From Candidatus Heimdallarchaeota archaeon (lineage in GTDB: Archaea > Asgardarchaeota > Heimdallarchaeia > Heimdallarchaeales > Heimdallarchaeaceae), in contig DXJF01000114.1 of NCBI GenBank assembly GCA_019057375.1, positions 1 to 64,000 of the forward strand: DNA of 64,000 nucleotides. Reading direction: 5' to 3'. Shown here piece after piece: positions 2,893 to 40,708 of the stretch. Position 1 is the first letter of the stretch. Each line of letters opens with the position of its first letter. Below the pieces are notes generated by a model. That model was given only the letters and a program-made list of their open reading frames with translations. It had not been told where the DNA came from and did no database searches. A program made the translations under genes and the position numbers.

Positions 2893-2985
2893 TGGCGGAC
2901 CAGGCAGGATTCGAACCTGCGACCCCCAGCTGTCTTCAGTATAAACTTCCGAAGGCTGGTGCCTTATCCACTAGACTACTGGTCC
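2893..2985 (-). tRNA. tRNA-Arg(TCG) with 17-nt intron at 37/38 (2932-2948); CCA encoded
   Basis: Full cloverleaf GGACCAG...CTGGTCC G CCA; strict BHB CTTC-GGA-AGT-TTAT-ACT-GAAG-ACA; 76 nt after splicing. Confidence 0.95.
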
Positions 2986-8095: not shown

Positions 8096-8487
8096 ACAAA
8101 AAAAGGTATATGAGAATAAAAATTTATTTTTCTAGTAGAGAAGACATTCAAATTTTCTTTTCATACATGTTATAAGTACTTCTCCCAATTAATCTAATAG
8201 CTTGTTTTCTTGATAGAAGACGTCTTACTAAGAATGTAGCAAATTTATTTGTAAAACCAGGAGTAAAACTTGGCCTTTTTCCTAGTTTAGCAAGTGATTC
8301 TTTTGCTACTTTCGTTGGATTCATAGGTTTAGGAACCAAAATTCCAGGATTATCGGGTTCTGTAGCTATATAGTTAGGTGTATTGGTGATTCCAGCTGTG
8401 CATGCTAAAACATCAATATTGTGTTTCTTAAGCTCAAACCATAACCCTTCTGCAAGTATGGAGTTGCTAGTTGCTGCATAATGAACG

Positions 8488-8710
8488 CACGTTATGAAAC
8501 TTGGTTAAACTTGCCAGAGGCTTTCTAACCGTCGTTTAAGTGGGTCCCCTCACGTGCGTTGAGGGGAAGTCATCCAGACTTTGTTCTGGAATAGTAAGTG
8601 GGCCTTCAGCATAGAGCTAGCTAGGCTCCCCGTTTCATGGTAAGTTTACTGAGAGACAACCACTTGTGTAGTTGCGAAACAGGTAGGTGCTGAAGCGCAC
8701 ACTATCTAGC
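8488..8710 (-). ncRNA. Putative omegaRNA-like structured RNA inside the element
   Basis: Lies downstream of a TATA box; multiple stems (CTTCAGCA/TGCTGAAG, CAACTAC/GTGGTTG, TCCAGA/TCTGGA, TCCCCTC/GAGGGGA); ends at the element right end. Confidence 0.55.
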
Positions 8711-8728
8711 TTTCTATGTGTACTTTCA

Positions 8729-8736
8729 TATATAAA
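8729..8736 (-). promoter_or_regulatory. TATA box TTTATATA inside the element
   Basis: Archaeal TATA consensus ~25 nt upstream of the structured region. Confidence 0.5.
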
Positions 8737-9439
8737 CCCGAAGAAAAAAAAACACCCATGCTTCTCTTTCCTACATCTCCCCATAACTAGGTAGAGGACG
8801 CATGGCAAGATTAGTCAACTTTACCACAAACAGTTGTGCACGGTCAAAGGATTACCTTGAAATCCAGCCATCGAACTAACTAAGATAATTCCACCTCTTT
8901 CTCTCTTCTTCATTAATTTACCAAAATAATCAACTAATGTTACAGGTCCTCTACAGTTAATATTAATAACATTAAAATGTTCTTCCAAATCAAAATCCAG
9001 AAATGGACCTATGGGAATGATTGCAGCATTATAGACCAACGTACCAATTTCAATATCCTTAGTATGCTCTTTTATAATCTTAATTACTTCTGAATCTGCT
9101 AAATCTGCACTAATTATTCGAACATGTACTCCATGTGTTTTTTCTATATCTCTTGATAATTTTTCAAGCAGTGGTTTTCTCCTTGCAACCAGAACAAGAT
9201 TGATGCCTTTATCTGCAAGAACCCTAGTAAATGCTTCGCCTATTCCTTGAGAACCCCCCGCAATCAGTGCCCAAGGTCCGTACTTTTGTTTGAATCGTTC
9301 TTTTTTCATATGCGAAACAGCTATCAATTGAAGTTTATTAAAAAGATTAAGTAAATTAATTTTACAAGATTTTATTGGAATGTTTCTAATGTTTTGGAAG
9401 AAGTTTGGTTAGAAAAAGGAGAAAGATGAAAAAGAAAAA

Positions 9440-38641: not shown

Positions 38642-40594
38642 TTGTGGATATTGTTACTGAGTGAATTGGTCACACAAGCAACAAGTAAAACTCAAACAAT
38701 TATGTCTCCCTCGTCAAAGGGAGTGATGAGAAGTTATCAGGTGGTGCTCAAGTGTATAGACCAATCCCAAAGAGAAGAGATTAACCAGAGAATAAAAACA
38801 TTAGAAGAACAACAAAATCAGCTACTCACCCCTCAAGTTGTCAAGCAAGCAGTAGAACTCTATAGAACCAATCCCAAAGAAGGATTTTTCACACGCCAAC
38901 TCTGCAAAAAAGTAGGGAAAAGTCCAAATATTGCAGAAAGTGCTTTCCACTGGTTATACATAGCTATCAAAGGAAAGATAGATAAGGAGAAGAAAGTGGA
39001 AGGGTTATTGAGCTTTCTTTTGAAAAATCCTCAACAGCTGATAGAATGGCTGATTTTTGGTCGTTCCCCTTATACTGAGCGAAGTTTAGAAAACTATTGG
39101 AGACTAAAAAGAAAATATATCATTAACCTCCTCACCAGTACTAGATCCAAAACTGATTCCTATTGGAGAAAAAAACACAAACACAACTATTTTGCTGACT
39201 TCCTACAATTCAACGACTCCCTTCCTTTTACGTCACAAACTGATATCCTCCAAGCTCTTGATGATGCGCTGTTTTACTACAATCATGAATTTTCTCTCAT
39301 CCCACAGCTTACCAAAAATCAGAAAGCATTTCTGAAAAAACTCCAACTCTTAAAGAAGGAACAAAAAACTGTAGTACCTTTTCTCACTTCATGGATCAAA
39401 GGTCCTCAAACTTCTCGATGGAAAAGTCTCAAAACTCTCTCCGAACAACTAGCTTCAATTATAGGCAAACCTTCTCGAAAACTCTTTTCAGTAGTTAGAC
39501 TGATAATTGTTTTCACACTCTTTGATCATTACATGCAGAGTGTCCCTCAGTTAGTTAAGGCTCTCCCTATTGCTAATGTTGTTCCCCTACCATTTAAACG
39601 AAAAAAGAAAGGAAGATTACCAATCAAATTGCTAATGAAGAAAAACTATGTTATCACCCGTCAAGGGAATGCTCAAGAATTGACTGATCAGGTAAAAAAA
39701 CAAGGATGGACGGAATTTTGTTTTCCGCAAAAGGGAAAACAGCGACTAACAGCTCAAGTTCACTTTCCTAAAAAAGTAATAGGGTATATTGGAAATGGTG
39801 CACACTTCAAAGTCTTCCAAGTAAGTAGTGGACAAGCTCCTAGTTTCAAACCTAGGGTGGATGTGGTACTCGAAGGAGCTCATGCTTGCTTCCATTCATC
39901 CAAACTTCTTCACCGTTATCTTGCTAATGTTTCTGCAAAGAAAGCTTCTATTCTTGGAGTAGATATTAACCGCTTAGGACAGTATATGGTCGTGTTTAAC
40001 ACCCCTATCCCTCTGCCTCCAGATTTACTAAACTTAGCAGCACACTATAAACATCTCAGCACAAAAGTTCTGGATGAGTTGAACACAGGTTTTCTCCGTA
40101 AAAGAAAAGAGTATGATTCCCACGGGTGTTGTAAACTTAAAGGTGAACTTGACCGTGTTTATACTCGTCGCAGCCGCATCCTTCGCGAAATCACTTATCT
40201 CCTCCCCCACTTTCTTGCTGCAGTAATGGTGAAAAAGAAGTGTAAAGTGTTAAAGATTGAACGTTTAACTGTTGATCCTACCGGCACCAGAGGAGCTTTA
40301 GCTAAAGCTATTTACACCATGCCCGATAGTTTGTTCATTTACAAAAAAGCAGTGTGGTTAGCTTCTTTGGAGTTAGGGTATGATGTGCAGTTAGAAGCAG
40401 TTCACCCATATCATACCAGCACCATTCATTACGGATGTGGAGGTCTTCTTACTCGTCAAAAAGGTCAGTATGATGTTGCTCCTTGTAAAAAGTGTGGTCA
40501 AAAGGTCCCTACTCATGCTAATGCTGCCAAAAATATTGCTTCCCTTCAAGGTATCTTTCTTCCTCCCGATTCCTTCCCCTCAACGCACGTGTAG
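38642..40594 (+). CDS. tnpB: Large TnpB/Cas12f-like RuvC protein (likely start ATG 38702, 630 aa)
   Basis: RuvC-I ILGVDIN, RuvC-II VLKIERL, HPYHTS-x-HxxC...CxxC zinc finger, RuvC-III THANAAKNI. Confidence 0.85.
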   Translation: MWILLLSELVTQATSKTQTIMSPSSKGVMRSYQVVLKCIDQSQREEINQRIKTLEEQQNQLLTPQVVKQAVELYRTNPKEGFFTRQLCKKVGKSPNIAESAFHWLYIAIKGKIDKEKKVEGLLSFLLKNPQQLIEWLIFGRSPYTERSLENYWRLKRKYIINLLTSTRSKTDSYWRKKHKHNYFADFLQFNDSLPFTSQTDILQALDDALFYYNHEFSLIPQLTKNQKAFLKKLQLLKKEQKTVVPFLTSWIKGPQTSRWKSLKTLSEQLASIIGKPSRKLFSVVRLIIVFTLFDHYMQSVPQLVKALPIANVVPLPFKRKKKGRLPIKLLMKKNYVITRQGNAQELTDQVKKQGWTEFCFPQKGKQRLTAQVHFPKKVIGYIGNGAHFKVFQVSSGQAPSFKPRVDVVLEGAHACFHSSKLLHRYLANVSAKKASILGVDINRLGQYMVVFNTPIPLPPDLLNLAAHYKHLSTKVLDELNTGFLRKRKEYDSHGCCKLKGELDRVYTRRSRILREITYLLPHFLAAVMVKKKCKVLKIERLTVDPTGTRGALAKAIYTMPDSLFIYKKAVWLASLELGYDVQLEAVHPYHTSTIHYGCGGLLTRQKGQYDVAPCKKCGQKVPTHANAAKNIASLQGIFLPPDSFPSTHV

Positions 40595-40654
40595 GGGACC
40601 CATTCAAACGACGGTTAAATAGCCTCTGCAAGTTTAACCAAGTTTCATAACGTG
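40573..40654 (+). repeat. Element right end / 3' part of omegaRNA scaffold
   Basis: 82-nt repeat shared with 8488-8569; hairpins CCCCT/AGGGG and GGTT/AGCC conserved, with changes in the loop. Confidence 0.85.
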
Positions 40655-40708
40655 CGCCGACTTCCTCCACGTCAAGGAGGTATCATAGCCAGGCTAGATC
40701 ACTGCCCC
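40655..40708 (-). pseudogene. 5' fragment of intronless tRNA-Val(GAC) (allele A), truncated in the T-stem
   Basis: GGGGCAG TG ATCT AGCCTGGCTA TGAT A CCTCC TTGACGT GGAGG AAGTC GGCG, then the element end. Confidence 0.9.

Follow-up and report, generated by a model that had tools for sequence, protein, structure and literature searches.

The window analysed here, a stretch of 64,000 nucleotides (nt) from a Candidatus Heimdallarchaeota archaeon (assembly GCA_019057375.1, contig DXJF01000114.1, positions 1 to 64,000; contig C65 of the host genome, G000), contains a gene for a short-chain dehydrogenase/reductase (SDR) that is interrupted by a 355-nt insert without genes of its own, and, some 32 kb further on, an open reading frame (ORF) of 650 amino acids (aa) belonging to the tnpB family. 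The insert, which is the subject of this report, shares the orientation of the SDR gene (both lie on the minus strand) and has a G+C content of 45% compared with 35% in the SDR flanks; the host assembly comprises 3.47 Mb with 33% G+C in 159 contigs and is 89% complete, and the names carried by homologous proteins assign it to Heimdallarchaeota/Heimdallarchaeaceae.

Excision of the 355 nt, as an earlier note on this DNA had pointed out, restores the reading frame exactly, fusing both SDR halves into a single frame of 268 codons (...SSMAGFQGNPLTVHYAAT...). The empty site is represented by the intact 275-aa SDR orthologues of three congeneric genomes (G018, G010 and G006), which read ...GTPLTVHYAATKAYN... 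at this point with zero extra residues, so that there was neither target duplication nor loss at the junction. The joined frame and the orthologous empty sites together fix the element at 8485–8839, and this copy does therefore define both ends, as had been claimed, with a boundary that can be slid over the CGT shared by both junctions (start at 8485–8488, end at 8839–8842). Directly downstream of the insertion (approximately 8462–8470, minus strand) the SDR sequence is YAATS--N where six aligned orthologues have YAATKAYN; the loss of the catalytic lysine and of two codons is as expected of a dead gene, and the interrupted SDR gene is decaying, the decay having followed the insertion or arisen independently of it.

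Family, target site and transposase

Relatives of the insert were sought in 24 genomes of the genus (25 with G000), from a collection with one genome per species. The right-end sequence was present in 21 of these 24 congeneric genomes, compared with 0 of 16 genomes from the other genera in the order, and both mini-elements and autonomous copies were recovered from the host genome and its relatives. Eleven gene-less copies of the same type as the window copy (type A), distributed over nine genomes, could be aligned end to end within unrelated flanks, with ACCGT as the left flank and the right end CATAACGTGCGT, and these identical junctions at unrelated sites bear out the earlier suggestion that the family is or was mobile. 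Of 17 insertions of mini or autonomous elements in 10 genomes, 16 are at ACCGT (the remaining one being at GCCGT); CGT closes all 17 left junctions, and GTGCGT all of the right ends that were checked. Copies other than that in the window are intergenic or lie in either orientation. One of them (L032; G013, contig C41, 1501–1855), in another species and at another site, is 98.6% identical to the window copy (5 differences in 355 nt), and, given one genome per species, an identity above species-level expectation suggests that the element was recently active or transferred, or is under constraint. Gene-less elements of another type (type B, approximately 400 nt; L062, L073 and L074, from G005 and G008) are diverged in their interior, which includes extra hairpins, and share with type A the ACCGT target, the left-end motif, the T-run, the TATA box, the core of the 5' domain and the right end.

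The parents of these mini-elements are tnpB elements. Window 8485–8569 matches 40573–40657 in inverted orientation with 93% identity, and the matched stretch covers the stop codon of the 650-aa ORF. The earlier note had described an inverted match of 82 nt with conserved stems and changes in the loops; the match to the tnpB right end stands, but it extends over 85 nt and its differences are not restricted to loops, two of them falling in a predicted stem. Similarly, the tnpB gene 32 kb away, which had been regarded as cognate, is a member of the same family but not the closest relative of the insert (G012 and G022 have right ends with 100% identity to that of the insert), and it carries no tnpA. 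The only Pfam signal of the 650-aa ORF is the TnpB/Cas12f zinc ribbon PF07282 (E = 1e-4), which is below the cut-off (22.9 versus 26.3 bits), and the profile of the TnpB family matches the C-terminal regions of Cas12f/TnpB proteins in the PDB (E = 2e-6). In its RuvC domain D438 and E537 are invariant, while the third aspartate is replaced by an invariant histidine (THxNAA) in all 20 aligned homologues.

The host genome holds seven tnpB copies of approximately 2.1 kb with mutual identities of 72–84%, at least five of which have intact ORFs of approximately 640 aa; most tnpB copies are without any tnpA, and those of G000 retain an upstream remnant of tnpA, namely some 40 nt of its 3' end. Short copies number three: that in the window, one at C81:24412–24740 and one split between the end of contig C49 and the start of contig C40 (96-nt overlap). 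Two solo right ends, 87–93% identical, were also seen in G000 (C124:13355–13446 and C7:12635–12716), the former having no tnpB ORF upstream and the latter lying too near a contig end to tell. The divergent tnpB subfamilies in the genome (C47, C12 and C117) yielded no mini-elements.

The earlier note had reported no transposase gene in the window and had proposed that one encoded elsewhere moved the family. None lies in the window, and a transposase was found between the same ends, beside tnpB, in the sister genome G008, where one locus (L084) consists of ACCGT, AGTCAACTGAAG..., a 200-aa tnpA ORF, tnpB and a right end closing in ...GTGCGT. The product of this tnpA gene (L084:1703–2305) has a MerR helix-turn-helix (HTH) domain (PF00376, E = 1.9e-13) and a resolvase domain (PF00239, E = 1.3e-21); it is thus a serine recombinase of the IS607 type and not a Y1 HUH enzyme, and the layout of the locus is the IS607 architecture (PMC10690162, PMC10711439). 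The first 37 nt or so of the mini-elements match the left ends of autonomous copies in sister genomes ((N4)CAACTG...AATCTTG in L084, L085 and L071). Two of these loci are themselves deletion forms: in L085 (G008:C15, 2713–3484) the left end and an intact IS607-type tnpA are followed directly by the right end, tnpB being deleted, and in L071 (G005:C106) the left end stands directly before the tnpB promoter, tnpA being deleted.

IS607-type tnpA genes were present in 18 of the 24 congeners (intact in G008, G005, G001, G024 and G023) and were not found in the G000 assembly, which is 89% complete. A six-frame search for Y1 transposases (PF01797) was negative in all 25 genus genomes, G000 included, and positive in control genomes. 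The four PF00239 genes of G000 were considered as sources of the cognate TnpA and rejected, since their products (252–262 aa) lack a MerR domain and the genes are located on other contigs, none of them beside element ends. Because no tnpA was found in its genome, the window copy is probably stranded there. The insert is precisely inserted at a conserved 5-nt site, has its ends in common with serine-recombinase elements and belongs to a family with many independent insertions.

The predicted guide-RNA gene and the echo of its 5' domain in tnpB

The features of the element are collected in Table 1. The imperfect subterminal repeat reported in the earlier note is real, is longer than had been claimed (20 nt, 80% complementary) and is conserved in other copies. 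Its right arm holds two CAAGTTT motifs approximately 10 nt apart and its left arm their inverted, imperfect counterparts; these motifs are probably binding sites of TnpA, the determinants of end recognition in IS607 being poorly understood (PMC10690162). The terminal GCAC...GTGC repeat is present here as described but is not a feature of the family, since other copies begin with CGTC, AGTC, AACC, AATC or TAGC; it is limited to the window copy and its G013 twin, and the 4-bp match is attributable to chance.

Table 1. Coordinates in the window of the element, the interrupted gene and the related tnpB gene
Feature	Position	Strand	Basis or description
Whole non-autonomous element, IS607-type, type A	8485..8839	-	355 nt; frame restoration, orthologous empty sites, 11 homologous copies with the same junctions
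Target/transposon-adjacent motif ACCGT	8840..8844	-	Within SDR codons ACC GTT
Left end	8803..8839	-	Four variable nt, CAACTG, subterminal repeat arm 8803-8822; aligns with L084, L085 and L071
Hairpin and T-run	8744..8805	-	Arms 8788-8805 and 8756-8773; nine T at 8744-8752
Promoter-like CTTCGGG-TTTATATA	8729..8743	-	TATA box 8729-8736
5' RNA domain of guide-RNA gene	8594..8706	-	Core P3-P4-J at 8627-8685; RNAalifold on 10 copies
Variable linker between RNA domains	8570..8593	-	Sequence and length differ among copies; deleted in G017
Right end, TnpB guide-RNA (omega/reRNA) scaffold	8485..8569	-	86-100% identity to right ends of tnpB elements
Subterminal arm at right end	8497..8516	-	Pairs with 8803-8822 (20 nt, 80% complementary)
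Putative guide flank TCATTATGCAGCAACTAGCA	8465..8484	-	SDR codons HYAATSN; adjoins 3' side of scaffold
SDR gene, 5' part	8840..9309	-	Rossmann fold, up to ...GNPLTV; PF00106, E = 2.7e-26
SDR gene, 3' part	8148..8484	-	Starts HYAAT...; YxxxK catalytic Lys replaced and two codons lost in six-orthologue alignment
tnpB family member, 650 aa, without tnpA	38642..40657	+	ORF to 40594; right end 40573-40657
Mid-ORF look-alike of 5' domain core	39509..39553	+	GTTTTC, 7-bp stem ACACTCT/AGAGTGT, CCCTCAGTTA; peptide FTLFDHYMQSVPQL

Between its ends the element has the appearance of a short RNA gene. The T-run that follows the hairpin is found in most mini copies with variable length, and the two together resemble a terminator and may act against transcripts reading in from outside. 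The TATA box GTTTATATA is conserved in 13 of 14 aligned mini copies, and the longer stretch TTTTCTTCG(G/C)GTTTATATA is an 18/19 match to the tnpB promoter stretch that precedes the start codon in L071 and L065; in the window this promoter-like stretch (approximately 8747–8729) reads TTTTCTTCGGGTTTATATA, its first bases being provided by the T-run. The TATA box is a predicted promoter that would drive transcription of the guide RNA, and the 5' RNA domain begins (at about 8706) approximately 25 nt downstream of it. The predicted RNA would be approximately 225 nt long and would consist of the 5' domain, the linker and the scaffold with its pseudoknot before reading into the SDR flank, of which the 20 nt at 8484–8465 would serve as the guide, by analogy with known TnpB RNAs. 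A 57-aa ORF in the insert (8635–8808) was dismissed as a coding candidate, as it is not conserved and its frame is broken by T-run indels and by a 27-nt deletion in the C81 copy.

Compensatory changes support the pairing in both RNA domains. The core of the 5' domain consists of two stacked helices followed by unpaired GTCCCTCAGTAAAC..., and in an alignment of 12 type A and type B sequences 97.9% of its cells are paired, with six compensatory pairs (slid controls 32–49%). The right-end scaffold comprises a hairpin (CCCCT/AGGGG), a pseudoknot between CGCACGT in the hairpin loop and the terminal ACGTGCG (the last bases of the element), two further stems and the two CAAGTTT repeats; in 38 sequences of parents and minis the hairpin is 99.5% paired and the pseudoknot 98.9%, three pairs of the latter being compensatory (slid controls 23–49%). 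This pseudoknot is the one expected beside the guide in TnpB RNAs. Pairing between the unpaired segment of the 5' domain and the right-end scaffold was no better than in shuffled sequences, despite an 11-nt complementarity in the window copy. Rfam searches of 8300–9000 (E up to 10) and of the whole window returned no intron, ribozyme or known small RNA, a single suhB match (E = 8.6) being attributable to chance.

The core of the 5' domain (its stem plus GTCCCTCAGTWA) recurs in the middle of the parental tnpB genes, in 10/10 of the full-length copies first examined and in invariant form in 23 copies. In the parents the leader GTTTTC is followed by the stem ACACTCT/AGAGTGT and by CCCTCAGTTA; type A minis have CTGTTTC, GCAACTAC/GTGGTTGT and CCCTCAGTAA in the same positions, and type B minis TGGTTC, GCAAGTG/CACTTGT and CCCTCAGTTAA, so that the minis share the parental arrangement with different, compensating stems. 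The 12-mer GTC[CT]CTCAGT[AT]A, a pattern defined after both sets had been seen, occurs nine times in the 3.47-Mb genome where 1.2 occurrences are expected, six times in tnpB, three times in the minis and nowhere else. Synonymous-codon identity among 23 genus copies of tnpB is 0.50–0.60 along most of the gene and 0.71–0.89 over codons 260–365 or so (approximately 39389–39706 of the window, about 300 nt), with a peak at the motif that exceeds the 99th percentile of permuted maxima; just before the right end, the 3' part of the coding sequence remains at background until the last 17 codons or so. Within the constrained zone, residues 315–332 (approximately) of TnpB form an invariant and strongly basic patch (PFKRKKKGRLPIKLLMKK). 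An overlapping ORF was rejected as a cause of the constraint, none longer than 39 aa spanning the motif.

As a whole, the 5' domain showed no significant homology to tnpB (nhmmer E of about 1.6; Smith-Waterman z = 1.1 with type A, 3.1 with type B), and a covariance model of the 5' domain (R1) gave only a local match on the motif when run against tnpB (E = 3.8); the two have only the stem-plus-12-mer motif in common. The parental stem is invariant and hence has no covariation of its own, and in distant TnpB homologues the peptide at the motif differs (TVNKV or NVSKV). The link between the mini 5' domain and tnpB is probably real, though unexplained, and is a link rather than a mechanism. A tentative possibility, which we consider rather doubtful, is that the mini 5' domain is a compacted copy of an RNA module lying within the tnpB frame and not an addition to the mini-elements. 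If this were true, the TnpB family would use, or be regulated by, a second RNA element approximately 1.1 kb upstream of the right-end scaffold, which might be, for example, an additional site at which TnpB binds its own mRNA or one component of a two-part guide RNA, and the gene-less elements would have fused both parts into one short gene.

Proposed mechanism and rival explanations

We consider it highly probable that the insert is a gene-less, non-autonomous and guide-RNA-bearing member of a Heimdallarchaeaceae transposon lineage within the IS607 family, operating as follows. TnpA(Ser), supplied in trans, would excise the element as a double-stranded circle, and the circle would integrate by crossover at a short core that the ACCGT of the target has in common with the ...GCGT of the right end. 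Since both junctions show CGT, this core would be either GT or CG, and the recurrence at the right end of the last bases of the target, (C)GT, is as expected for the crossover core of a serine recombinase. In the inserted element, the hairpin and T-run would halt read-in transcripts, while the tnpB-like TATA box would drive the RNA of approximately 225 nt into the SDR flank, turning the flank into a guide. The RNA would be loaded in trans onto TnpB from the intact tnpB copies of the genome, and the TnpB-RNA complex would recognise ACCGT together with the SDR flank, that is, the donor site left empty by excision, whereupon the element would be copied back (restorative homing). The IS607 mechanism and TnpB homing have been described for other systems (PMC10690162, PMC10711439).

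Several observations weigh against this proposal. Promoter, RNA ends and guide are predictions, and with TnpA absent from the genome (89% complete) the element cannot currently be mobilised here. The histidine that replaces the third RuvC aspartate in all 20 aligned TnpB sequences leaves nuclease activity, and with it homing by cleavage, unproven, notwithstanding that conserved Asp-to-His replacements in RuvC-III of other TnpB branches are taken as compatible with activity (PMC10691335). Those IS607 enzymes that have been studied need just a dinucleotide plus weak preferences, and the strict 5-nt site seen here is stricter than this rule, a strictness that could result from selection via the motif requirement of TnpB and not from TnpA specificity.

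The strict insertion 3' of a 5-nt motif without duplication, the resemblance of the right end to the target and the lack of tnpA beside most tnpB copies would also be in keeping with an IS200/IS605 derivative of the kind known as palindrome-associated transposable elements (PATEs), moved as single-stranded DNA by a Y1 (HUH) TnpA acting at subterminal hairpins and inserting 3' of a pentanucleotide. The failure of the six-frame search to find a Y1 transposase in any of the 25 genus genomes, however, together with a MerR-resolvase as the sole transposase found between these ends, brings this explanation close to refuted, and the ends bear an inverted pair of repeated motifs in place of same-strand hairpins beside cleavage sites; we regard it as very unlikely. 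No greater likelihood attaches to the view that the insert is spliced from the SDR transcript, as an IStron-like group I intron or an archaeal bulge-helix-bulge intron, and that the host gene still works. The co-orientation of element and SDR gene, removal exactly in frame and a 20-nt subterminal inverted repeat able to join the ends in a read-through RNA would suit splicing, but Rfam gave no intron or ribozyme match at E values up to 10, the hairpin and T-run would terminate read-in transcripts, copies elsewhere lie between genes or in either orientation, and the SDR gene, without its catalytic lysine and two further codons, has the pattern of a dead gene. The GCAC/GTGC helix that a bulge-helix-bulge intron would require is specific to this copy and is not generally present in the others, and this form of intron was rejected by inspection.

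Co-option is somewhat less improbable, though still unlikely: the insert would be mobile DNA whose RNA has been recruited as a trans-acting regulator or as a TnpB decoy (RNA-guided repression of the TldR kind) and not for homing. An RNA that has a predicted promoter of its own and whose additional 5' domain is under structural selection, a TnpB family without the canonical third aspartate, and tnpB ORFs and RNA scaffolds that remain intact in a genome in which no tnpA was found could all be accommodated in this way. Nothing requires a regulatory role, however, because the guide differs from copy to copy and equals each copy's own flank; the copies act as selfish insertions, here breaking a gene, and the conserved His-type RuvC-III branches are thought to be still active (PMC10691335).

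Relation to known systems

The assignment of the element to IS607, which we propose from sequence comparison, rests on its ends and on the transposase of its parents. In the studied IS607 systems with TnpA(Ser), TnpB and a right-end omega or right-end element RNA (reRNA), namely the CboIStron IS607 (PMC10690162) and ISXfa1 (PMC10711439), as in the autonomous relatives here, a MerR-HTH serine recombinase precedes tnpB, insertion leaves the target unduplicated, both junctions carry the same short core, a target motif stands on the 5' side of the left end, and the right end forms a guide scaffold with a pseudoknot that extends to the last bases. The Heimdallarchaeaceae system differs from these in that the window copy is gene-less, in its ACCGT target with a GT/CG core compared with (T)GGG, in a TnpB of approximately 640 aa with histidine for the third RuvC aspartate, in the lack of a group I intron, and in a guide RNA with its own predicted promoter and an extra 5' domain.

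Gene-less elements that bear guide RNAs are an already known class, of which the window element is otherwise an ordinary member. The IS200/IS605 PATEs of Geobacillus stearothermophilus, which encode omega RNAs (PMC10055086), are likewise minimal, consisting of ends and omega RNA only and depending on TnpA and TnpB in trans, whereas they are moved by Y1 as single-stranded DNA via end hairpins and the cognate transposase of the present elements is a serine recombinase, no Y1 having been found in the genus. The stand-alone mobilised omega RNAs of OMEGA (obligate mobile element-guided activity) systems, as far as they are summarised in PMC10691335 (Altae-Tran et al. 2021), work in trans and are similarly effector-less and transposase-less mobilised loci beside effector-containing loci in the genome; compared with that summary, the present elements have defined ends and a defined target motif, promoter and parent transposase, their host is an Asgard archaeon and a structured 5' domain is added. 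Miniature inverted-repeat transposable elements (MITEs) are also short, non-coding, multi-copy deletion derivatives that are mobilised in trans and disrupt genes, but the present elements have no DDE-type terminal inverted repeats or target duplication and carry a functional-looking RNA gene.

What is new is that the extra 5' domain of the minis is mirrored within the parental tnpB gene, under synonymous constraint, which provides a testable lead on RNA handling by large His-type TnpB proteins. The window copy also fixes to the base the ends, the ACCGT target and the minimal cis content of an Asgard IS607/TnpB system, for which the type of transposase can now be named as a basis for testing in a heterologous host. 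For annotation, the G+C-rich, ORF-free islands of Heimdall genomes that resemble new structured RNAs are copies of this mini-transposon family, and these are able to inactivate host genes. Elsewhere in the window, a tRNA match at 2896–2985 (minus strand) is unusually long at 90 nt and is probably an intron-containing archaeal tRNA gene.

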